Shown: positions 8,542 through 58,631 of the stretch, in pieces
How the letters are laid out: each line of letters starts with the position of its first letter
How positions within the stretch are numbered: the stretch's first letter is position 1
Assembly: GCA_963714085.1 (NCBI GenBank)
Contig: OY970229.1
Coordinates: 100,849 to 164,848 of the forward strand
Direction of reading: 5' to 3'
DNA: 64,000 nucleotides
Source of the DNA: an uncultured Candidatus Micrarchaeota archaeon
Lineage (GTDB): Archaea; Micrarchaeota; Micrarchaeia; Anstonellales; Bilamarchaeaceae
The notes under the pieces: model-generated
Database searches by the model: none
Seen by the model: the letters and a program-made list of their open reading frames with translations, nothing else
What the model was told of the DNA's origin: nothing
Position numbers and translations under genes: made by a program

Positions 8542-10308
8542 ATGCCTACGAGAATCGCAGTGATAGACAGGAACATCTGCATCAGGGCCAAGTGCGGGTA
8601 CCTCTGTGCCAAGGTCTGCCCGCCGAACAGGATGGGGGAGGAATGCATCACCGTGGAGAAGGAGAGCGACTTCCCGGTCATATCCGAGGAGCTCTGCATA
8701 GGCTGCGGGCTCTGCGTGAAGAAGTGCCCTGTCAGCTGCATCACCATCATAAACCTCGCCGGCGAGCTGGAGGACCCGATATACCAGTACGGCATCAACG
8801 CCTTCAGGCTCTACGGGCTCCCGCTGCCCAAGGAGGGCGGCGCGGTGTCGCTCGTGGGCAAGAACGGCATAGGGAAGACGACCGCGATCAGGCTGCTGAG
8901 CAGGCAGCTGAGGCCGAATTTCGCGTCCTTCGGAACCGAACTCACGGACGCCCAGATGCTGGGGAAGCTGTCCATGGAGGTGCGCCGCTATTTCGAGGGG
9001 CTGACCGGCGAGCTGAGGATAAGCTCCAAGCCGCAGTACATAGACAGGATAAGGGAGCTCTCCAAGGGGACCGTGCGCACCCTGCTCAAGAGCTCCAAGG
9101 CCGGCGATGCGAAGATAGAGGAGGCGGTGAGGACATTCGCACTTGACGAGATACTCTCGCGCCGCATCTCCCAGCTGAGCGGCGGGGAGCTGCAGAAGGC
9201 CGCCATCGCGACCGCCTGGCTCAAGGACGCGGACATCTACTATTTCGACGAGGTGACCAATTACCTCGACATAGAGGAGCGCCTGCGCATGGCGGTGATA
9301 CTCCGGGACCTTGCCGAGCGCAAGAGCGTGCTCATGGCGGAGCACGACCTCACGATACTGGATTATGTCAGCACCTACGTATATCTCTTGTATGGCGAGG
9401 AGAACACCTACGGTGTGGTCTCCCACGTGAAGAACGCCCGCTCCGGGATAAACGAGTACCTGGGCGGCTTCCTCAAAGACGAGAACGTCAGGTTCCGCGA
9501 CATCGAGATAGAGTTCAGCAGGCACAGCGAGTCCGAGATAAAGACCGCCGCGGTGCTCAAGTACGAGCCGCTCTCCAAGTCCTTCGGCAGCGGAGGCGGG
9601 TTCTCATTCACGTCGGATGCGGGCGAGCTGAGGAAGGGGGAGATACTCGGCCTGGTGGGCAAGAACGCCTTGGGGAAATCGCTCTTCGTCAAGATGCTCG
9701 CGGGCGTGGAGAAGCCGGATTCCGGCCTGGCGATAAGCAAGAAGGTCTCCTACAAGCCGCAGTACATATCCGCGGAGGAGGTCCAGGTGCAGGAGATGTT
9801 CGCGTCGCGGAAGATAGAAGGCGCGGTGTTCGAGGAGGCCAAGAGGAGGCTGAAGCTCGGCCCGCTCATGGAGAAGAAACTGACCGAGCTCTCCGGAGGG
9901 GAGTTGCAGCGGGTCGCGTGCACGCTCGCGCTCAGCCAGGAGGCGGACATCTATCTTTTCGACGAGCCGAGCGCGTTCCTTGACATCGAGCAGAGGTTCG
10001 AGTTCGCGAAGCTGCTCCGCAGCGTGATAAGCGAGTCGGAGAAAGCCGCGTTCGTGGTCGACCACGACATCGTGTTCGTGGACGCGATCGCGAACAGATT
10101 GGTTGTTTTCGACGGCCACAGCTCTGTGAAAGGACATGCGTCCAAGCCCATGGACAAGCGCGAGGGCATGAACGGGTTCCTGAAAGTCGCGGGCGTGACC
10201 ATGAGGCGCGACAAGGACACGAACCGGCCGAGGATAAACAAGCCCGGGAGCCAGCTGGACGCCGAGCAGAAGGCCGCTGGCGAGTACTTCTATTTCGAGA
10301 GGAAATGA
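8542..10308 (+). CDS. abcE1: ABCE1/RNase L inhibitor-type ribosome-recycling ATPase (N-terminal 4Fe-4S ferredoxin-like domain plus twin ABC cassettes)
   Basis: The N-terminus has [17 protein letters not shown] and [12 protein letters not shown] cysteine clusters. Two Walker A motifs ([17 protein letters not shown]) and two LSGGELQ signatures are present. The 588-aa length is typical. Confidence 0.9.
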
Positions 10309-11254: not shown

Positions 11255-12298
11255 TTGATTACTATGCGGAGAAACACACCTGTTACAATATCCAAGACAT
11301 CCATGATAGCCTTGTCCGTCGCCGCGCTCACGGTTTTCGGGGCCTGGAAGGCCGGCGCCGATCCCGATCATGCCAAGAAGCCGGACCCGGTCCAGAAAGC
11401 GGCGGATGTCCCTGCCGCAACGCTCACCCCGGAGCACTGCACCGTCCATCCCGAGCTCGAGCTCTACGCGGGCAAGCGGAAGCTGGACCCGAAGCTCGTG
11501 CGCGCCGTGGCCATAGCGGAGAGCAACCTGGACGCATGCGCGGCCGCACGCGCAGGAAGCAGCTGGGGCCCGAACTGCTATTCGCTCGGCTATGATTATG
11601 TGCCTGACCCGGAGTCCAGATGCAACAACGCCTCCGAGAGCCCGGGACAGGCCGGCTCGCCCCTCTGGCGCTACTGCGGCCTGGGGCTCATGCAGACCCT
11701 GGAGCCCCCTTACACTTTCTGGCCCGCACTAGTTCCGGACGGGAAATACGGCCCGTACAGCTCCGGCGGCCAGAAGCAGCTCTTCCAGGAGGCGCAGCTC
11801 AGAGGCAGGATGAGCTTCCTGCTGGACGCGAAGGCGTGCTCGCCAGCGTTCAATCCGTTCAATCCGGAGCACTCCGCCTGCCTGGGGACCCACAAGCTCG
11901 CGGCAGCCATGGACGGGGCGGGGAAGCTGGCTGAGTCCAGCACGCAGGAGCTCGGGAATCCTGGCCTGGCGGCAACGAAAGCGATAACGGCGTATCTCGC
12001 GCTGCACTACTACTACGGCGACGGCGGCTATGCCCAGGGCTGGATAGCCGAGTTCGGAAGGCGCCGCGCGCAGACAAAGGAGTTCTGCGACAGGAAAGCT
12101 AGGAAGAAGGACCCGGTATGCGTGGAGCGGAAAATCTCCGCGCGCCCGGAATGCTACGGCATGGACGATTTCATCGCGTTCGTGCGGGAGTGCAGGTTCC
12201 GGGACGGCCCGGGGCAGAGCGAAGCGCCGTTCTACGGGGACTACGGCTCTAAGGTCCTCTCCGTGGCCAGGGGATTGGAGAACACCTGCGGGAAATAG
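11255..12298 (+). CDS. Secreted lysozyme-like / lytic transglycosylase (SLT family 1)-domain protein
   Basis: N-terminal hydrophobic anchor or signal (MIALSVAALTVFGAW). AIAESNLDACA carries the catalytic Glu-Ser. GLGLMQT is the GLMQ motif. AITAYLAL resembles the AYNAG region. The protein is Cys-rich. Confidence 0.55.
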   Translation: MITMRRNTPVTISKTSMIALSVAALTVFGAWKAGADPDHAKKPDPVQKAADVPAATLTPEHCTVHPELELYAGKRKLDPKLVRAVAIAESNLDACAAARAGSSWGPNCYSLGYDYVPDPESRCNNASESPGQAGSPLWRYCGLGLMQTLEPPYTFWPALVPDGKYGPYSSGGQKQLFQEAQLRGRMSFLLDAKACSPAFNPFNPEHSACLGTHKLAAAMDGAGKLAESSTQELGNPGLAATKAITAYLALHYYYGDGGYAQGWIAEFGRRRAQTKEFCDRKARKKDPVCVERKISARPECYGMDDFIAFVRECRFRDGPGQSEAPFYGDYGSKVLSVARGLENTCGK

Positions 12299-15104: not shown

Positions 15105-16229
15105 ATGAAAGCCAACGACCCGGTGACAATAGTAATAGCGATCCTGATCATCATCGCCGCCATACTGTTCATCAGGTGGACCGGCGCAGGCGCGGTGGTG
15201 ACCACGCCGGTGGTGAACACGGTGGCTAACGGCATCGGCAACGCCCTGAACGTGACTTCCAACCAAAGCGCGGTCGGCGAGGGCTCCCTGTTCCAGAAGG
15301 CGCCGGAGCTCACGGGGATATCCGGCTACATAAACGCTCCGAGCAATCTCACCATCGCGAGCCTCGGGGGCGACGTGGTGCTCGTGGATTTCTGGACCTA
15401 CTCGTGCATAAACTGCATACGCACCCTCCCCTACCTGGAGGCGTGGGAGCAGAAGTACGGCCCCATGGGCTTCGTCATAATAGGCGTGCAGTCCCCTGAA
15501 TTCGAGTTCGAGAAGGATTTCAACAACGTCCAGGCGGCGGTCACGAAGTACAACATCACCTATCCGGTCGTGCTGGACAACGACCACGCGACCTGGAACG
15601 CGTACCAGAACCTCTACTGGCCCGAGGATTACCTGGTGGACGCCGACGGCTACATAAGATACACCCACATCGGCGAGGGCGACTATGACACCACGGAGTC
15701 GGAGATCCAGCAGCTGCTCATGGAGAGGAACCAGAACGCGTCGCCGGGCGGGATCGTGGCGAGCAACATCAGCGCGAACTACGACCTCTCTAAAATCGGC
15801 ACCCCGGAGATATATCTGGGCTATTCCTTCGCAAGGCAGCCCATCGGCAACCCGCAGGGCTTCGTGCGGGACCAGGTCGTGGACTATTCCATCCCCCAGG
15901 CCATGCAGACCAATGTCGTCTATTTCTCCGGGTCCTGGCTGAACAACCCGGACAACATGGAGCTCTCTTCGGACACCGGCAAGATAATCCTGACATACTA
16001 CGCGAAGAACGTGAACATCGTGGCCGGAGGGAACGGCACACTCAACCTCCTGCTGGACGACGCCGCGCCGTCCCCTGACCAGTACGGCCTGGACGATGCG
16101 AATGGGACCGTGACCGTGAACCAGGAGCGGCTCTACAGTTTGATAGACGACACGGGCTACAACCAGAGGACGCTGGAGATAGATGCCACTGGGAAAGGAT
16201 TCAGGATTTACACATTCACGTTCGGCTAG
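15105..16229 (+). CDS. Membrane-anchored extracytoplasmic thioredoxin-fold thiol:disulfide oxidoreductase (TlpA/ResA-like) with a C-terminal beta-rich domain
   Basis: N-terminal TM helix. VVLVDFWTYSCINCIRTLPYL contains the CxxC (C-I-N-C) redox motif of redoxins. It starts 5 nt after ccdA. Confidence 0.8.
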   Translation: MKANDPVTIVIAILIIIAAILFIRWTGAGAVVTTPVVNTVANGIGNALNVTSNQSAVGEGSLFQKAPELTGISGYINAPSNLTIASLGGDVVLVDFWTYSCINCIRTLPYLEAWEQKYGPMGFVIIGVQSPEFEFEKDFNNVQAAVTKYNITYPVVLDNDHATWNAYQNLYWPEDYLVDADGYIRYTHIGEGDYDTTESEIQQLLMERNQNASPGGIVASNISANYDLSKIGTPEIYLGYSFARQPIGNPQGFVRDQVVDYSIPQAMQTNVVYFSGSWLNNPDNMELSSDTGKIILTYYAKNVNIVAGGNGTLNLLLDDAAPSPDQYGLDDANGTVTVNQERLYSLIDDTGYNQRTLEIDATGKGFRIYTFTFG

Positions 16230-16265
16230 GCCGCGGATCGGGCCCGTCTTTTTGCCTTCGATGCG

Positions 16266-17189
16266 TCAAACCGACAGCCTATCCAGCGTATCGCAGATTA
16301 TCTCGAGCGACTCCTTGAAGGTTTCTTCGTTCAGGATGGAACCGGGCAGTATGTAGGCCGCCCGTTCGTTGGTTATATTGAATAACGCCCATTGTCCGTC
16401 AAAACGCGTGCTTCTCCAAAGAATCGAGTACATCCCGAGCTTGTCGATGCGCTGGTAGATGTCCTCCAGGCCGGCGGCCACCATCCGCTCTTTGCTGTCG
16501 AAGATCATCTTCGGATCCCTTCCCGATCTGTTCGGGGTCTTGATGCTCAATCCGACGCTTTGGCCCAAGCCGCTCGGGGTGAACAGCTGGATATTGAAAT
16601 CCCGTCCCCTGTAAGCGCCATCCCATCCGGTCGCGACCTTGGCAAAACCGTTTTTTTGCAGGACCGGTTCTATCGAAGACGCCGCGGTATCTTTTGATTT
16701 TTTAGCCTCGGCGCTGAGAACGAAGAATAGCAAGACCGCTATCGGGATTATGAATCCGATGAGGATGTAACCGGATTGGGTGGTGAAGAGGGTGGAAGCG
16801 AGCCGTGATTGGTCCGGTGCATCGGGATTCACGAGGATTCCGATTTCGGACTCTCCGGTGTTCGCATTCGTTGTGCCTCCGACCTCGCCTACGAACTGGA
16901 TGGTGGACGGTGCGACATCGCTTGAGCAGCAATGGCCCGAATACTGGTTTTCGTTATAGGGATAAGCGTAGGTCATATTGACTATGTGCGAGCAGGATCC
17001 GTGCGTATCGCAGTTTGAAATCGCGTTTTCATCGAAGTGGGTGACCGTCGCATTGACTGGTCTCCAGGTGCTGAGGATGACATAGTCGGAATACAGCGAC
17101 TGTACGCCGATGAAGATGAAGCAGAGGCCTATGAGCACCGCGAGACAGATTACGTACTTTGCGTAGTACGGCATTGCCATGGCCAGCAT
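16266..17189 (-). CDS. Hypothetical membrane protein (two TM segments, Cys/His-rich extracytoplasmic loop)
   Basis: 307-aa ORF with hydrophobic N-terminal and central helices. No recognisable catalytic motif. Confidence 0.5.
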   Translation of the reverse strand: MLAMAMPYYAKYVICLAVLIGLCFIFIGVQSLYSDYVILSTWRPVNATVTHFDENAISNCDTHGSCSHIVNMTYAYPYNENQYSGHCCSSDVAPSTIQFVGEVGGTTNANTGESEIGILVNPDAPDQSRLASTLFTTQSGYILIGFIIPIAVLLFFVLSAEAKKSKDTAASSIEPVLQKNGFAKVATGWDGAYRGRDFNIQLFTPSGLGQSVGLSIKTPNRSGRDPKMIFDSKERMVAAGLEDIYQRIDKLGMYSILWRSTRFDGQWALFNITNERAAYILPGSILNEETFKESLEIICDTLDRLSV

Positions 17190-17251
17190 AGGGACTGGTT
17201 ATTATTTTAAGGTTTGGCACGCCACCGGGATTGAGCCGGCCATGCCAAGCT

Positions 17252-18178
17252 CTACCGCTTCTTCTGCAGCCACTCGTACGCGCAATACGAGGCCAGCACC
17301 GCCTCCCCTGCGCCCACTATCGCCTGCTTGAACACCGTGTCCGCGACGTCGCCGCACGCGTACACGCCAGGGACGCTCGTCTCCGCGCGCCTGTTGATCA
17401 TGATCTCTCCTTTTTCGTTGAGCTTGGCACCCAGCTGCTTCGCGAGCTCGGAGTTCGGAGTCCTCCCGATCTCCACGAACACGCCGTCCACCTTGAAGTC
17501 ATGAGAGCCGTTGTACGGCTTGTCCAGGACGAGATTCTCGAGCCGCCCCTTCCCAGCGAACTCCTTCACGTTCGTCTTGTTCATTATCTCTATCTTGCTG
17601 TTCGCCATCGCGCGCTCGAGGTTGACCGGCTCCGCGCGCACCTTCTCGCCCCTGTAGATGATGTAGACCTTCTTCGCCCATTGCGTGAGCAATAAAGCCT
17701 CCTTGACCGCGGAGTCGCTCCCGCCTATCACCGCTATGCTCTTGTCCCTGTAGAAGACCCCGTCGCAGAGCGCGCAGGTGTGCACGCCCTTGTTCTCCAG
17801 CTCGGTCTCGCCCGGGATGCCCATCTTGCGCGTGGCGCTGCCTGTCGCGAGTATGAGCGCCCTGGAGGAGTATGTTTTGCCCTCGGCGTCCGTGACCGTG
17901 AACCCGTCCTTGGTCTTCTCGGCCTTGACCGCCTTCGCATCCACGATCTCCGGCTTGTACTCGTTGGCGTGCTGCTCTATGTTATTGGCCAGGTCCATGC
18001 CGTTGATGGACTTTATGCCGGGCCAGTTCGTGACGTGGTTGGTGAGGATTATCGTGCCGCCACGGCTCTCCGCTATGACGAGCGTGCTCAGCTTCAGCCT
18101 GCCGCAGTACATGGCCGCGGAGAAACCCGCGACCCCGCCCCCGATGATGGCGATGTCGTATTCCATGCGCTCACGCAA
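17252..18178 (-). CDS. trxB: Thioredoxin-disulfide reductase (NADPH/FAD)
   Basis: DIAIIGGGVAGFSAA is the FAD GxGxxG motif. CALCDG is the redox-active CxxC. AVIGGSDSAVKEAL is the NADPH site. An alternative start is the Met at 18166. Confidence 0.9.
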   Translation of the reverse strand: MRERMEYDIAIIGGGVAGFSAAMYCGRLKLSTLVIAESRGGTIILTNHVTNWPGIKSINGMDLANNIEQHANEYKPEIVDAKAVKAEKTKDGFTVTDAEGKTYSSRALILATGSATRKMGIPGETELENKGVHTCALCDGVFYRDKSIAVIGGSDSAVKEALLLTQWAKKVYIIYRGEKVRAEPVNLERAMANSKIEIMNKTNVKEFAGKGRLENLVLDKPYNGSHDFKVDGVFVEIGRTPNSELAKQLGAKLNEKGEIMINRRAETSVPGVYACGDVADTVFKQAIVGAGEAVLASYCAYEWLQKKR

Positions 18179-18434
18179 GGCCGAGCGCCTTCTTTATCGC
18201 CGGCTGGTTGAAGCCGATTATCACGTCCTTGTCTATCAGGATGACCGGGATGCCGGTCTGGCCGGAGACCTGCTGGACCTCGGCCGCGTACTTCTGGTTC
18301 ACGCCCACGTCCCTCATCTCGAACTTTATCTTGTTCGCGTTGAGGAAATCCATGGCCTTGTGGCACCAGGGGCACCATTCCGCCGAATAGACGATCACCT
18401 TTTTCTCCGCAGCTTTTTTTTCCGCCATAAACAC
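18171..18434 (-). CDS. Glutaredoxin/NrdH-like small redoxin
   Basis: 87 aa with VIVYSAEWCPWCHKA (CPWC active site) and a thioredoxin-fold C-terminus GIPVILID. It overlaps the trxB start by 8 nt. Confidence 0.85.
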   Translation of the reverse strand: MFMAEKKAAEKKVIVYSAEWCPWCHKAMDFLNANKIKFEMRDVGVNQKYAAEVQQVSGQTGIPVILIDKDVIIGFNQPAIKKALGLA

Positions 18435-18499: not shown

Positions 18500-18545
18500 G
18501 CGGCGAAAAATCGCGGAATAAAAAAAATGAAGAAATGCCTGGCCT
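18500..18545 (-). terminator. Hairpin (GCCTG-GCCT-CAGGC) followed on the minus strand by an oligo-T tract, located 3' of the GH19-like gene
   Basis: The minus-strand reading is ...gcctgaggccaggcatttcttcattttttttattcc. A hairpin followed by a T run is an archaeal-style terminator. Confidence 0.4.
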
Positions 18546-19312
18546 CAGGCAAAAGACGTTGCGTATATGTCCCTCCTCGAGTTCAGGTAGGCCAGCAGCG
18601 CGCTCGTTTTGGCCGGGTTGTTCTTGAACAGAGCGAGATATGCGTTCGCCTTGTTCTGGAAATCGTTCGCATACGCATCTCCGCCGTTTATCGCCTTTCC
18701 GACCGACCAGTAGCTCTTGGATTGCGCCAGGGATACCAGTCCCTTCCCCTTATAATACGCCACGAATATCTTCGCTGCGTAATTCGGCTGCAGGGCCTTG
18801 ATCTGGGGGCACACCGCCGCGTTGGTCGCAGTGCACTTCCACTGGTTTTTGCATCCACATACGTTGGTCTGTGGCGTCGAGGTGCCGATACAGTCAGAGC
18901 CGCAGTACGTCTGATAATTGTACTTGTGCGTTATCTGTATGTAGCCCCTGCCTTTGTAATCAACGCCTCCGTCATAGGGCGTCGATCTGCACGCGCCGTT
19001 GATCTTGTAGGTGCATCCCGGCCCCATGCCGTAATCCCCGTTCTCCTCGCCAGGCACATAGCCTATCCCTCCAACCTCCTTATCCAGCGTCGCCATGGTC
19101 GCGGCAAGCAGTTCTGGAGTCATGCTCATCCCGTTGTCGTTGAACGACAGGGAGATTGACCGCAACGCGGTTTGCAAATTCGCGTTCGAGGTCGAGCCAT
19201 GATTGAACAGCGCAGGGAAGTCGCTGCTTCCCGTGTACGCAAATGCCGCCCCCGCCATCTGGCATAAGACCAGGATGGCAAACACCAGTCCGAATCTTTT
19301 CATGGTTTTCAT
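18545..19312 (-). CDS. Secreted glycoside hydrolase family 19-like (chitinase/lysozyme-like) protein
   Basis: Signal peptide MKTMKRFGLVFAILVLCQMAGAAFA. DYKGRGYIQITHKYNY matches the GH19 GRGPIQL(S/T)WNYNY core. The mature protein is Cys-rich. The track ORF starts 12 codons further upstream (19348). Confidence 0.6.
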   Translation of the reverse strand: MKTMKRFGLVFAILVLCQMAGAAFAYTGSSDFPALFNHGSTSNANLQTALRSISLSFNDNGMSMTPELLAATMATLDKEVGGIGYVPGEENGDYGMGPGCTYKINGACRSTPYDGGVDYKGRGYIQITHKYNYQTYCGSDCIGTSTPQTNVCGCKNQWKCTATNAAVCPQIKALQPNYAAKIFVAYYKGKGLVSLAQSKSYWSVGKAINGGDAYANDFQNKANAYLALFKNNPAKTSALLAYLNSRRDIYATSFA

Positions 19313-19335
19313 AGATACCACGTAATCATCTGGGA

Positions 19336-20010
19336 GTGCCGGGTGCATTAGGCTGGCGCCGCTGTCGGACGGCCCCAGACCGCTTCCTGGCCGCTGTGGA
19401 GCGGTGGCAGGATGATATTCTTGCGTGCCATCAGCATATCATGGCAAGGGGCGAGGCGGCGGGCGCAAGGCTCATGGAGGTGTCGGACCGGCTCGTCGGG
19501 ATACGCGCCGGCATCCGGAGGCCGAACGTGGAATCCAAGATACGCGTGCTTAGGGAGAAGGTGCGCAGGATCGCGTCCGGGCGCTGCACCGCGGAGCAGG
19601 CGGACAGGTTGATTGAGATACTCTGCCTTCCGGTGGACCTGGATTTCCGCCAGAGGATGGAACTCGAGTCGTTCGACGCCGCGAGCCTGGCGAAGAAGAG
19701 CCTGGCTCTCGCGGAGCTGATGGCCTGCACCCCGGAGCTCGGGGCGCTCCAGTTCTGGCGGCCCGGCCTTGGCCCGGCGGCCCTGGGGGGCGCGGACGCG
19801 AAAAAGAGGATGTCCAGGCTGAGGCTCATGCCAGAGGTAAGGCGAAGGAAGAAGGATCGCATATTCCGCATGTTGAAGATCCCGGCATCCGTGGAGACGC
19901 TAGTCCATGACATAGAGCGCGATTACATGGTCCTTGACGAATGCCGGAAGCTCGAGGAGAAAATCGACCATTGCCTTTCGAAGATAAAGGAAAACCTGGC
20001 GCGGCTTTAA
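19336..20010 (+). CDS. Hypothetical protein
   Basis: 224-aa ORF divergent from the GH19-like gene. The C-terminal half is protein-like (charged, helical). The N-terminus is uncertain. Confidence 0.4.
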   Translation: MPGALGWRRCRTAPDRFLAAVERWQDDILACHQHIMARGEAAGARLMEVSDRLVGIRAGIRRPNVESKIRVLREKVRRIASGRCTAEQADRLIEILCLPVDLDFRQRMELESFDAASLAKKSLALAELMACTPELGALQFWRPGLGPAALGGADAKKRMSRLRLMPEVRRRKKDRIFRMLKIPASVETLVHDIERDYMVLDECRKLEEKIDHCLSKIKENLARL

Positions 20011-21378: not shown

Positions 21379-22110
21379 CTACCTCATCACCCTCATTATG
21401 TCGCTCATTATCGGCATGAGCTTTCGCTCCGACTTCCTGAGCAGCTCCGCGGCAGTGCTTTCGCTTATGCCGAGCTTCGCGCCCAGCTCCTGGAGGCTTA
21501 CCTTCTTCGGTTCCTCATAATATCCGTACCTGCACGCAAGGTCGAACAGCTCGTACTGGCGCGGCGTGAGGAGCTCTGACGCGGATTTGAGCTGGAGGTA
21601 GCCGCTGGAAGAGAATATGTCGAAATTGACCTTCTCCTTCGTAGTTATGAACCTCTTGGACTTGAGCCTTATGTCGTAGTTGCCCTCCACAATCTCCAGG
21701 AATTTCCGGTAGTTATGGTAGCTCGGCGCGAAGAGCGTGACCACGTCCGTGCCGTTCTGGCTGTAGGTCGGCTGGAGCCATGCAACCCCCGAGCTTGCGA
21801 GCTTTGGGGCAGTGGATATGCAGTTGTCCGCTCGTATCGCGACCCAGCTCGTCCGCTCGCCCTTCTGGACCACCCGCACCTCCCTTACCTCCTTCAATGA
21901 CCTGGACCGCTCCAGCATCCCCGCAAGCTCGTCGCTGCCTATCTCGAACAGGTTGGTTACGGTGTTCCTGTCGCTGGACAGCGTCATCAGCCACCGTATC
22001 TTGATGCCGTGGAGCCTTTCGCTGGCGTCGCAGCTGACGCACTTATGGACCTGCTCCAGTTCCACGATCAGAGGCGATTCCCCCATGACCCTGTTTTCGT
22101 CTTTTTTCAT
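21379..22110 (-). CDS. HTH_10 (Bat-type) family archaeal transcription regulator
   Basis: C-terminal LTPRQYELFDLACRYGYYEEPKKVSLQELGAKLGISESTAAELLRKSERKL is the HTH_10 DNA-binding domain. Confidence 0.8.
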   Translation of the reverse strand: MKKDENRVMGESPLIVELEQVHKCVSCDASERLHGIKIRWLMTLSSDRNTVTNLFEIGSDELAGMLERSRSLKEVREVRVVQKGERTSWVAIRADNCISTAPKLASSGVAWLQPTYSQNGTDVVTLFAPSYHNYRKFLEIVEGNYDIRLKSKRFITTKEKVNFDIFSSSGYLQLKSASELLTPRQYELFDLACRYGYYEEPKKVSLQELGAKLGISESTAAELLRKSERKLMPIMSDIMRVMR

Positions 22111-25859: not shown

Positions 25860-26807
25860 ATGGCAAACGCAATTGGAGGCATGCCTCTTCAGCACAGTAC
25901 GCGCAAGGACGTGATAAGCGTCGGATGGAGACCGGCAGTGGAACGCCGATTTGACGCGAACCGGTACAGGCCGATCACCGGATGCATCGAAAAGCTGGAC
26001 CGCGGCAAGTCGTTGGTAGTGAAGGCCGCGTTCGAGATGGACCCGAATGGATGGACGGGTTATGACTATCACCTGGGCACAGCAATAAACCGCACCGAGC
26101 GCCACTCGGGCGGAGGCTTCATGCAGCTGGAGTGCATGGAAGACGGGATAAAGGCCGTTGATTTGCTGCAGCAGGTCTACGACCTGTGCGCCCTTCTCTC
26201 CCATCCGCGGATCTGGTACGACCAGTCCTGGTTCAGGGCCTCGCGCGGGGAATACGCCATCGAAGAGGCCAGGGCCGTGCTCAGCATCGAGAAATCCGAT
26301 CCGGTCTTCGGCAGGCGTGATAGGACATTCGCCGGAGCCTATTATCCGAGCCGTGCCAAGATCCTGAGGATCATAGAAAGGCTTACGACGCCCGAGGCGC
26401 AGGATGACATAACCGCCATGGTGGACATGAGGCGCATGATAAACTTCGACTCGTTCTGCATCTCCACGCACCCTGGAAGGACCGACGATGGCAAGAATTG
26501 GGAGCTCGCGCATGAGAAGATGGCCGCGAGGGCGATCTGGTACATGAGGAACAACCCCTGGCTGGAGACCTGCTGGGAGCACTGGATGGACGTATCCGGG
26601 CCGCTCGATATGCCGAGACCCTACGCCTCCATCAATGAGCTCGGCATGCTGGATAGGACCGACAGGCTCAAACTCCTCGTCCCATTGCTGAGCCTGCTGA
26701 AAAAGGACCAGAGCATACACCTGGTCAAGGCGAATACGTCGGTGCAGTCGTACCTGGTTGACATCACGGGCAAAGACAGGCTGGATGGAGACCATCAGCG
26801 AAAGTGA
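25860..26807 (+). CDS. Hypothetical protein A1 (first of two tandem paralogues)
   Basis: 315 aa. It shares HxGGGFMxLxCxEGGIxAxxLLxxVYDLCAxLxHPRIWYxxxxxxxxRGEYAIEEARAVL and INFDSFCISTHPGRTDxGKNWELAxEKMAAR with A2. Confidence 0.6.
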   Translation: MANAIGGMPLQHSTRKDVISVGWRPAVERRFDANRYRPITGCIEKLDRGKSLVVKAAFEMDPNGWTGYDYHLGTAINRTERHSGGGFMQLECMEDGIKAVDLLQQVYDLCALLSHPRIWYDQSWFRASRGEYAIEEARAVLSIEKSDPVFGRRDRTFAGAYYPSRAKILRIIERLTTPEAQDDITAMVDMRRMINFDSFCISTHPGRTDDGKNWELAHEKMAARAIWYMRNNPWLETCWEHWMDVSGPLDMPRPYASINELGMLDRTDRLKLLVPLLSLLKKDQSIHLVKANTSVQSYLVDITGKDRLDGDHQRK

Positions 26808-26811
26808 CGCT

Positions 26812-27708
26812 ATGAAAAACACGGCTGAAAGGGAGTTTCTCGGATGCAGCAAGCGCGGGGATGCGATAAGCATCGGATGGAGAGCGAAGGACCGTGAGCC
26901 CATCATCGAATTCATCAAAAGCCCGGGCACCCCCCTGGAAGTGAAGATGGCGTTCGAGGTGGACGGCCGGAGCAAGAAAAGACATGATTATCGCTCGGCC
27001 AAAACAACGGACTGCCCGGATGCCCACTTGGGCGGCGGGTTCATGAGGCTCAAGTGCGTGGAAGGCGGGATAACGGCCGCGGAACTGCTACGGCCGGTCT
27101 ACGACCTGTGCGCCTGGCTCCCCCATCCGCGGATCTGGTACGAGCGGTACATCTGGCCCGAGCCAATGCGCTCCCGCGGGGAATACGCCATCGAAGAGGC
27201 CAGGGCCGTGCTCGGTCATGGGCAATCGAAAGCGATCTTCGGCAGCCGGGAATTCGCCGGGGTGTTTTACCCCAGCTACGCCAAGGTCCTGGGCATCCTG
27301 GAAGAGTTTACCACGCCCGGGGAAGAAGCGAATGATGAAATAACGAGGATGATCAACTTCGACTCGTTCTGCATCTCCACGCACCCCGGAAGGACCGACG
27401 CTGGCAAGAACTGGGAGCTCGCGCAGGAGAAGATGGCCGCGAGGGTCATCTGGTACATGAAAAACAATCCTTTCGCGAACAGCGGCTTTGACCGCTGGCT
27501 GGACATAGTGGGGCCGCTGGAGATGCCAGACGGCTTCCATTCCATCGATGAGCTGGGCAAGCTGGATGGGGCCGACAGGTTCCACCTCCTCGTCTCAGTG
27601 CTGAGCATGCTGAAGGGGGACGACAGGCTGCACCTAGTCAGGACAGGGATACCGGTGGAGCTCTACCTCAACGGCGTGATAACCAGGCACAGGCCGGGCG
27701 ACGACTGA
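26812..27708 (+). CDS. Hypothetical protein A2 (paralogue of A1)
   Basis: The start was moved to the MKNTAE Met by alignment with A1. It lies 4 nt after the A1 stop, so they form an operon. Confidence 0.6.
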   Translation: MKNTAEREFLGCSKRGDAISIGWRAKDREPIIEFIKSPGTPLEVKMAFEVDGRSKKRHDYRSAKTTDCPDAHLGGGFMRLKCVEGGITAAELLRPVYDLCAWLPHPRIWYERYIWPEPMRSRGEYAIEEARAVLGHGQSKAIFGSREFAGVFYPSYAKVLGILEEFTTPGEEANDEITRMINFDSFCISTHPGRTDAGKNWELAQEKMAARVIWYMKNNPFANSGFDRWLDIVGPLEMPDGFHSIDELGKLDGADRFHLLVSVLSMLKGDDRLHLVRTGIPVELYLNGVITRHRPGDD

Positions 27709-58413: not shown

Positions 58414-58483
58414 AATAATAAAAATCTACCCTTATAACAAAGACTGAAACAGCAGTCCACAGCGAGTGATGGGTTTTATTCAG

Positions 58484-58555
58484 GCCCTCGTAGCGCAGTG
58501 GTAGCGCGCGTCCTTGGTAAGGACGAGGTCACGAGTTCAAATCTCGTCGAGGGCT
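58484..58555 (+). tRNA. tRNA-Thr (anticodon GGU)
   Basis: Cloverleaf folded by hand. Acceptor GCCCTCG/CGAGGGC. D-arm GCGC-AGTGGTA-GCGC. Anticodon arm CGTCC-TTGGTAA-GGACG. T-arm ACGAG-TTCAAAT-CTCGT. Discriminator U. No encoded CCA. A T-rich tract follows. Confidence 0.9.
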
Positions 58556-58631
58556 TACTCCAGAACCAAACATGGGATGTTTTTGTTGGACGGCAGAGAG
58601 AAATTAAATATCTTTAGCAAGTAAGGAAAGT

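Follow-up and report, generated by a model that had tools for sequence, protein, structure and literature searches.

A divergent, predicted secreted GH19-like protein of a Micrarchaeota-like archaeon, from a clade seen so far only in archaea: a likely anti-bacterial muramidase

The protein considered here is encoded on the minus strand of a 64-kb stretch of contig OY970229.1 (called the window below, meaning the whole stretch that was analysed), which appears to come from a Micrarchaeota-like DPANN archaeon. A first-pass annotation of this DNA had flagged an ATG-initiated open reading frame (ORF) of 267 residues at 18545..19348 of the minus strand as a GH19-like secreted protein, chitinase or lysozyme; the ORF was found exactly as claimed. 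Residue numbers follow the 252-residue protein that is most likely made from it, and 15 has to be added for the 267-residue ORF. The gene and its parts are listed here.

18545..19348, minus strand: longest ORF, 267 residues, with ATG at 19348 and the stop codon TGA at 18545-18547
18545..19303, minus strand: most likely coding sequence (P0001), 252 residues, beginning MKRFGL
19238..19303, minus strand: predicted Sec-type signal peptide MKRFGLVFAILVLCQMAGAAFA, cut after AFA, from hydropathy and a conserved cleavage context
18578..19237, minus strand: GH19-like (lysozyme-fold) catalytic domain, residues 23-242 of the 252-residue protein, from profile, fold and PHROG matches
19076..19078, minus strand: Glu76 (Glu91 in the longer ORF), predicted proton donor, in ATLDKEVGG, aligned with the first GH19 catalytic Glu
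19043..19045, minus strand: Glu87 (Glu102), predicted base, in VPGEENG, aligned with the second catalytic Glu of the outgroup (PVxE; LPVEE/VPGEE)
18914..18961, minus strand: core motif DYKGRGYIQITHKYNY with Gln123, Thr125 and Asn129/Tyr130, fitting the GH19 core G-R-G-x-x-Q-x-T-x-x-x-N-Y; residues 130-145 of the 267-residue ORF, placed by back-translation
18929-18931, minus strand: Thr125 (Thr140), predicted water-coordinating residue, in KGRGYIQIT
18800..18868, minus strand: family-specific, 23-residue Cys-rich insertion TNVCGCKNQWKCTATNAAVCPQI, residues 146-168, from the alignment with the outgroup
18520..18527, minus strand: oligo-T run (T8), 18 nt past the stop codon

The ORF is a real gene and not a chance ORF, since an identical 252-residue product is called in two public assemblies (the 1.57-Mb NCBI/ENA contig and Logan contig L001) and homologues were recovered in both large searches: a word-indexed search across 5.8 billion proteins found 14 of them (51-69 % identity), and a profile search run exhaustively over 1.84 billion representatives found 43 proteins at E<=1e-30. 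The Logan assembly of run ERR11594402 contains an identical copy. Three in-frame ATGs are available (19348, 19312 and 19303); the 15 extra N-terminal residues of the longer ORF are probably not translated, because gene callers choose 19303 and the homologue alignment likewise begins there, with a few basic residues ahead of a hydrophobic core. Upstream of the gene a clear TATA box was not assignable, which leaves the start codon and the 5' end uncertain; a scan with a sigma-70 promoter model, which is irrelevant to an archaeal host, found nothing. Transcription in archaea terminates at oligo-T runs, and on this basis the T8 run is likely to be a terminator that separates the gene from the glutaredoxin gene downstream. 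With this run past its stop codon and a TATA-like element ahead of the glutaredoxin gene, the GH19-like gene looks monocistronic.

The N-terminus of the predicted product is consistent with a Sec signal peptide, and hence with secretion: MK(T)MKR is followed by the hydrophobic core LVFAILVLCQMAGAA, the maximum Kyte-Doolittle window of the protein, and the segment ends in AFA directly before YTG, a cleavage context (A-x-A, then Y-[ST]-G) common to all homologues aligned. The mature protein would comprise 230 residues (approximately 24.7 kDa, pI 8.8, 8 Cys), and a hydropathy scan found no second hydrophobic segment in it. Signal peptide, a single domain of approximately 220 residues and a 10-residue tail together represent the minimal form of the clade to which this protein belongs.

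Sequence comparisons place the domain in GH19, as a distant member. Searched singly against the PDB (phmmer), the protein gave marginal matches, the best of them to the class II chitinase of jack bean (1dxj, E=0.0016), with DKEVGG aligned to its SHETTG; the best PDB matches of the family profile were GH19 endolysins only (9ms7, 8p8e, 9hnv, 4ok7), in co-linear segments. The trimmed family profile (A2) had 443 matches at E<=1e-3 among 1.84 billion proteins, and those outside the family itself (E 1e-13 to 1e-7) aligned in two stretches that flank the family-specific insertion. Sources label these distant relatives 'predicted chitinase' or 'glycoside hydrolase family 19 protein'; PF00182 was present in nine of the ten that were scanned, in seven of them above the gathering cut-off, and the outgroup member P0055 matched GH19 endolysin crystal structures at 1e-14 to 1e-11. 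Profile-profile alignment (hhalign) of the family with 12 GH19 outgroup sequences gave a probability of 99.7 % and E=3.6e-27 over 171 columns, and the single sequence matched two PHROG families, both annotated 'endolysin' (phrog_181, 2.8e-8; PHROG 9506, 1.3e-3).

The predicted structure points in the same direction. A first AlphaFold2 (AF2) model, built from an alignment of 14 close relatives, reached a predicted local distance difference test score (pLDDT) of 74, and its top five Foldseek matches, at E-values of approximately 0.1, were already GH19 proteins; it was replaced by a second model from a 41-sequence alignment that included outgroup members (pLDDT 91.3, predicted template modelling score 0.89). 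The top ten PDB matches of the second model were all GH19, with the endolysins 9ms7, 8p8e, 9eoi and 4ok7 ranked first (probability 1.00) and chitinases at ranks 5-8 and 10. Among the approximately 28 best matches in BFVD, almost all were phage GH19 lysins, GH19-type 'predicted chitinases' or other lytic enzymes. The model has the alpha-helical, bilobal fold of the lysozyme superfamily that characterises GH19. The two outcomes that the first-pass annotation had named as fatal to its proposal, failure to recover GH19 and recovery of a non-enzymatic fold, did not occur; GH19 was recovered by profile and by fold.

In a MAFFT alignment, the clade is co-linear with the GH19 outgroup across the whole domain, and the residues expected to carry out catalysis can be located in it. 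The shared GH19 core, as defined in the GH19 Engineering Database (GH19ED) with SPN1S numbering, includes E49 as the proton donor, E58 as the base and T130, which coordinates the water (PMC8547705, Table 1), together with G123-R124-G125, Q128, N134-Y135 and I186-N187-G188 (PMC8547705). Glu76, whose outgroup counterpart lies in xEVG/HET, is kept in 37 of 38 family representatives, the sole exception being P0013 (Ala); Glu87 is found in 38/38 and is invariant in all 41 sequences of the combined alignment of family and outgroup (A3); Thr125 is kept in 37/38. The G-R-G triplet is conserved in 38/38, the core motif residues in 36-38 of 38, and Asn129/Tyr130 and Ile205-Asn206-Gly207 match the NY and INGG elements of GH19. 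The two catalytic glutamates and the water-positioning Ser/Thr of GH19 thus have counterparts here, and the alignment of catalytic Glu residues that had been proposed as a check yielded both glutamates as well as the threonine. Mapped by hand through chained alignments and not through a reference structure, approximately 19 of the 26 GH19ED core positions conform (A40, A41, A44, T45, E49, E58, Y106, G123, R124, G125, Q128, T130, N134, Y135, P150, the aromatic residue 167, I186, N187 and G188), and five differ: F42 (Ile/Thr), H48 (Lys), S50 (Val), T183 (Gly) and R196 (Phe). The equivalent of endolysin N191, a position outside the 26-position core, is Ala by chained alignment. Since several substrate-contact positions deviate, the specificity could differ from that of known GH19 enzymes. 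The GH19-like core that the first-pass annotation had proposed is borne out by profile-profile alignment, transitive searches with hidden Markov models (HMMs), PHROG endolysin matches, fold search and the catalytic triad, all of which support the window protein as a divergent GH19 homologue.

The most conspicuous departure from other GH19 proteins is the Cys-rich insertion, which follows the strand region of the small lobe, precedes the C-terminal helices and was absent from every GH19 outgroup sequence aligned. Its cysteines, together with Cys134 and Cys138 just upstream, form a set of six, each conserved in 34-38 of 38 representatives. A further pair, Cys97 and Cys105, varies in concert (both Cys in 24 sequences, Ser and Arg in 6), which is the pattern that a disulfide would be expected to produce. 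The insertion and the Cys97/Cys105 pair probably stabilise the extracellular enzyme, via disulfides or possibly a metal site.

The host was identified through a gene elsewhere in the window:

8542..10308, plus strand: ABCE1/RLI, whose named best matches are all from Micrarchaeota or Candidatus Bilamarchaeum, at approximately 67-74 % identity

Metagenomic relatives of this ABCE1 reach 80-92 % identity. The archaeal host assumed at the outset agrees with these matches, and the window organism is, by this marker, a Micrarchaeota-like DPANN archaeon; its 1.57-Mb contig is large for that group. The nearest homologues of the GH19-like protein bear the label Methanothrix, but an origin of the window in Methanothrix was rejected on the ABCE1 matches. 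A scan of 185,579 species genomes found 11 full-length loci, all of them archaeal: two in Methanothrix metagenome-assembled genomes (MAGs), one in a Methanosarcinales MAG, two in unclassified archaeal MAGs (L005, L011) and the rest in DPANN MAGs, assigned to Micrarchaeota, Nanoarchaeota/Nanoarchaeia and Woesearchaeota. A twelfth match, in a Heliobacteriaceae bacterium, covered 63 residues at 41 % identity and was not accepted as a clade member. The Methanothrix assignments are credible because the neighbouring genes include MC1, a DUF1608 S-layer protein and archaeal housekeeping genes. The clade comprises about 43 clusters at 50 % identity; every member that bears a source name is archaeal, and on these assignments it has been seen so far only in archaea, that is, in DPANN lineages, in Methanothrix and in another Methanosarcinales MAG. 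In a crude neighbour-joining (NJ) distance tree with sparse taxon labels and without support values, the window protein and the Methanothrix group (66-72 % identity) form sister branches, both nested among DPANN sequences, a hint of gene transfer between DPANN archaea and methanogens. Gene neighbourhoods, compared across Methanothrix and Micrarchaeota loci, were not conserved. In two assemblies (GCA_037128175.1 and GCA_964526885.1) the Methanothrix copy is split over two frames near codon 50 (L003 7950..8656; L016 and L017 9744..10450), and only its C-terminal 255 residues are called as a protein (P0014, 16 contigs); the split is a real frameshift or a pseudogene in that lineage. The split copy adjoins a stretch rich in toxin-antitoxin genes (ParE, PIN/MazE, HicAB, Fic).

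Many relatives are larger than the window protein, and their domain partners include several that act on murein. The Micrarchaeota protein P0024 combines the GH19-like domain with Amidase_3, and the adjoining gene encodes a second Amidase_3 protein; P0025 (Nanoarchaeota) is fused with Peptidase_M23; P0028 (Woesearchaeota) and P0053 are fused with NlpC/P60; and P0033, of 992 residues on a 939-kb contig, carries GH19-like, SLT and M23 domains in a single chain. GDSL hydrolase and NAGPA partners occur in P0031, P0036 and P0039, and WD40, TPR, CarboxypepD_reg and S-layer domains in other relatives, the S-layer (DUF1608) domain on the Methanothrix homologue P0002. Giant DPANN proteins of 3,140-3,316 residues (P0023, P0026, P0043 and P0050) embed the GH19-like domain among PKD, CARDB, NosD/beta-helix, TSP3, CBM96 and disaggregatase-related repeats, and P0023 adds an alpha/beta-hydrolase (DUF915) segment. 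No classical chitin-binding module was found in the approximately 28 multidomain clade members scanned.

Taken together, these observations favour, at a probability of about 0.65, a secreted single-domain glycosidase of GH19 fold, likely an anti-bacterial muramidase, that belongs to a divergent clade so far known only from archaea. The protein would be exported by its Sec signal peptide, which would be cleaved after AFA, and the mature enzyme of about 25 kDa would most likely be a muramidase that cuts the beta-1,4 bond between N-acetylmuramic acid (MurNAc) and N-acetylglucosamine (GlcNAc) in bacterial peptidoglycan. It would follow the inverting, single-displacement mechanism of GH19, in which Glu76 would donate the proton, Glu87 would act as the base and Thr125 would hold the attacking water in place. 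A Micrarchaeota-like DPANN producer has no murein of its own; for that reason the enzyme would be aimed at targets outside the cell, where neighbouring bacteria would be lysed or stripped, either in competition or to scavenge nutrients. Secretion, activity, the peptidoglycan substrate and this ecological role are all features that we infer.

Several observations weigh against this interpretation. On the single sequence, PF00182 reached 12.3 bits (E=0.14), where the gathering score is 25.5, and covered residues 120-155 only, and an NCBIfam scan matched no model; the HMM annotation that had been proposed as a check, a plain Pfam/CAZy-style scan, is thus sub-threshold and would look negative if taken alone. 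The Foldseek E-values of the second model are about 2e-3, with TM-scores of 0.45-0.64, as for a distant GH19 protein. Substrate-contact residues deviate (Lys for His before the first Glu, N191 to Ala, R196 to Phe), and the window protein lacks a cell-wall-binding domain. The GH19 family includes chitinases, and the best single-sequence PDB match is a plant chitinase; muramidase activity is assigned to the clade by comparison. The clade also occurs in free-living Methanothrix, and DPANN archaea usually attach to other archaea rather than to bacteria.

The first-pass annotation had left the choice between chitinase and lysozyme open, and the evidence leans to lysozyme (muramidase). If the enzyme were a chitinase or chitodextrinase, the GH19 machinery would cut beta-1,4-GlcNAc polymers, such as environmental chitin or chitobiose-containing glycans, for carbon and nitrogen acquisition. 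GH19 is a family of two activities whose characterised members are mostly chitinases (PMC12329726, PMC8547705); the jack-bean match aligns the first catalytic Glu, chitinases take half of the top ten fold-search ranks, and the outgroup relatives carry the source label 'predicted chitinase'. That label (COG3179), however, is a generic tag often placed on phage GH19 lysins, and endolysins come ahead of chitinases by profile, fold and PHROG. The fusions described above are with peptidoglycan-specific amidase and peptidase domains and, in the members scanned, never with chitin binders of the CBM5/12/18 type. At the water site the window protein has Thr and not Ser, a Thr being found there in 99 % of the endolysin (ELYS) subfamily versus 10 % of the chitinase (CHIT) subfamily (PMC8547705), and Gly113, which corresponds to the endolysin-specific position 118, is present in 38/38 representatives. 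Other subfamily patterns have been described (I33, R109, G118 and L173 for ELYS; C97, C105, F/L151, G190, G192 and F/Y222 for CHIT; PMC8547705); the equivalents of I33, R109 and L173 could not be mapped reliably, and the Cys pair of the clade lies near the C97/C105 region of CHIT in a different register. One GH19 endolysin whose active site is laid out in this way acts strictly as a muramidase and shows no activity on chitin (PMC12329726). Peptidoglycan therefore seems the likelier substrate, given the murein-domain fusions, the lack of a chitin-binding module, the closer endolysins, and the Thr at the water site with Gly113; a chitinase is unlikely.

Slightly less likely again is an enzyme of DPANN-host interaction, which would open the archaeal surface glycan of a host, for example a methanogen, for attachment or cytoplasmic bridging. 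The confinement of the clade to DPANN and Methanothrix/Methanosarcinales is compatible with such a target, as are the position of the window protein next to the Methanothrix group, a hint of exchange between potential partners in a tree without support values, and the substrate-contact residues unlike those of canonical GH19. The members of more than 3,000 residues contain repeats that are characteristic of archaeal surface proteins (PKD, CARDB, NosD/beta-helix and disaggregatase-related), and P0002 has its S-layer domain. The Amidase_3, M23, NlpC/P60 and SLT fusions nevertheless indicate murein, and we know of no beta-1,4 GlcNAc/MurNAc wall polymer in Methanothrix or in the known Micrarchaeota hosts. 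Methanothrix itself has a copy of the enzyme with a signal peptide, which would harm its own producer if the producer's envelope were the substrate. A more speculative and still more doubtful version holds that the whole clade is an archaeon-archaeon tool, exchanged between DPANN archaea and hosts of the Methanothrix type, that cuts the GlcNAc-containing envelope glycan of the partner; it would be built into the giant DPANN surface proteins, and the insertion and the altered contact residues may give it a new specificity. If this is true, a glycosidase would for the first time be linked to contact between DPANN cells and their hosts.

A relict endolysin of phage or viral origin, that is, a cryptic prophage gene without a role for the archaeon, is very improbable. 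The closest characterised relatives are indeed phage endolysins, but a PHROG scan of nine other window ORFs, flanking genes included, found no match, and the flanks encode glutaredoxin, thioredoxin reductase and an HTH_10 regulator. The GC content at the gene (0.55-0.57) is within the local range; 2.9 million viral contigs in IMG/VR yielded one weak, 22-residue match, and thus no viral reservoir; the gene has a signal peptide instead of a holin partner, and the catalytic residues are intact across many archaeal chromosomes with unrelated neighbourhoods. By its context, the gene does not qualify as a phage-encoded lysis enzyme. A catalytically dead, lectin-like homologue that only binds glycans is equally improbable: inactive GH19 'chitinase-like proteins' exist (PMC8547705) and P0013 has lost its first Glu, but the window protein retains both Glu and Thr, and conservation in 37-38 of 38 representatives indicates selection for catalysis.

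The anti-bacterial muramidase proposed here can be compared with three groups of known enzymes. With the GH19 endolysins (SPN1S, 4ok7; PaGH19Lys, 9eoi; KTN6 gp46, 8p8e; PWe2, 9ms7), whose structures are its best sequence, profile and fold matches, it shares the alpha-helical, bilobal lysozyme-type fold, the Glu...Glu pair on a helix-loop (xE-x8/9-E), the strand-loop GRGxIQ(I/L)T...NY with Thr as water holder, and the C-terminal INGG motif. It differs from them in its low identity (approximately 15-20 %, under the Pfam GH19 cut-off), the Lys in place of His before the first Glu, the unconserved equivalents of N191 and R196, the 23-residue Cys-rich insertion of the clade with up to eight cysteines, and the signal peptide of a gene that is chromosomal in archaea and lies outside a phage lysis cassette. 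The paper on the GH19 Engineering Database does not mention archaea, and its endolysin groups come solely from bacteria or viruses (PMC8547705). The GH19 chitinases (plant classes I, II and IV and bacterial; 1dxj, 3wh1, 1wvv) have the same fold and the same Glu/Glu/Ser-Thr logic, but they match more weakly than the endolysins, and the second Glu of the clade is spaced by 9-10 residues, as in the 'loopless' or endolysin type, compared with a plant spacing of 22; the Thr at the water site and the missing chitin-binding module in scanned clade members are further differences.

The third group comprises the archaeal peptidoglycan hydrolases and the giant murein-transglycosylase proteins of DPANN archaea. 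Secreted peptidoglycan hydrolases that kill bacteria are encoded in archaeal genomes, those of Nanoarchaeota being especially rich in them (Strock et al. 2025; PMC12352652); in Woese- and Pacearchaeota, giant extracellular murein-transglycosylase proteins have been read as means of attack on, or attachment to, bacteria (PMC8204110, PMC9723730). Like these, the window protein is archaeon-encoded, apparently secreted and putatively aimed at a polymer that archaea do not make, and its clade is likewise DPANN-enriched, patchy and shuffled with M23, amidase and SLT domains; the catalytic types differ, with GH19 here, M23 in the tested archaeal hydrolases and GH23 in the DPANN giants. An anti-bacterial role would fit these described archaeal wall-degrading enzymes. 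The survey of Strock et al. 2025 relied on a Pfam catalytic hit plus a wall-binding domain (PMC12352652), and the surveys of DPANN giants were also Pfam-based. The window protein, which has neither a binding domain nor an above-threshold Pfam match, falls outside that modular definition; some of its clade relatives carry several catalytic domains. A literature search found no description of the clade and nothing specific on GH19 in DPANN or Micrarchaeota, or on a Micrarchaeota-Methanothrix association.

The window protein is a new, divergent and structurally embellished member of a known enzyme family, with a proposed role already documented for archaea in general; the finding leaves the known GH19 mechanism unaltered and does not amount to a novel type of system. 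Surveys of the means by which archaea attack bacteria miss the clade if they depend on Pfam/CAZy thresholds, and because it falls below these filters and the wall-binding-domain filter, enzymes of this kind are probably more numerous in DPANN archaea and methanogens than the counts suggest. The clade, which is compact, keeps its catalytic residues and is repeatedly fused to amidase, M23, NlpC/P60 and SLT domains, offers an easily expressed candidate for asking whether DPANN archaea and Methanothrix lyse bacteria, what the Cys-rich insertion does, and whether the gene passed between DPANN archaea and methanogens; the clade is also a potential source of unusual lysozymes.

The surroundings of the gene within the window include the following features.

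11255..12298, plus strand: 'SLT-like' gene, 347 residues, hydrophobic at the N-terminus, containing the motifs AIAESNLD and GLGLMQT
15105..16229, plus strand: Redoxin and Thioredoxin_10 protein
17252..18178, minus strand: thioredoxin reductase
18171..18434, minus strand: glutaredoxin, flanking the GH19-like gene
21379..22110: HTH_10 regulator
25860..26807 and 26758..27708, plus strand: tandem ORFs of approximately 315 residues each, clearly paralogous
58483..58556, plus strand: tRNA-Thr (GGT)

The other flanking genes encode hypothetical proteins and a DUF429 protein. The first-pass annotation had presented the GH19-like protein as a second putative cell-wall hydrolase besides the 'SLT-like' gene; the GH19-like half of this pairing holds, and the SLT-like partner is weak: its Pfam SLT match is sub-threshold (E=0.005, 16.8 vs 21.3 bits, residues 72-102), PDB and PHROG searches gave no match for it, and the GH19-like loci fetched from other genomes contained no copy of it. 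A thiol-redox cluster (15105..18434) lies directly downstream of the gene for the Cys-rich, predicted secreted enzyme; a functional link between this cluster and disulfide formation is not claimed, as the adjacency is not repeated at homologous loci and is probably coincidental. The paralogues at 25860..27708 are a tandem duplication and share the blocks HPRIWY, GEYAIEEARAVL, MINFDSFCISTHPGRTD and GKNWELA.EKMAAR; neither has a Pfam match, and the first, the only one scanned against PHROG, had no match there. The tRNA-Thr is the only structured RNA detected in the window.

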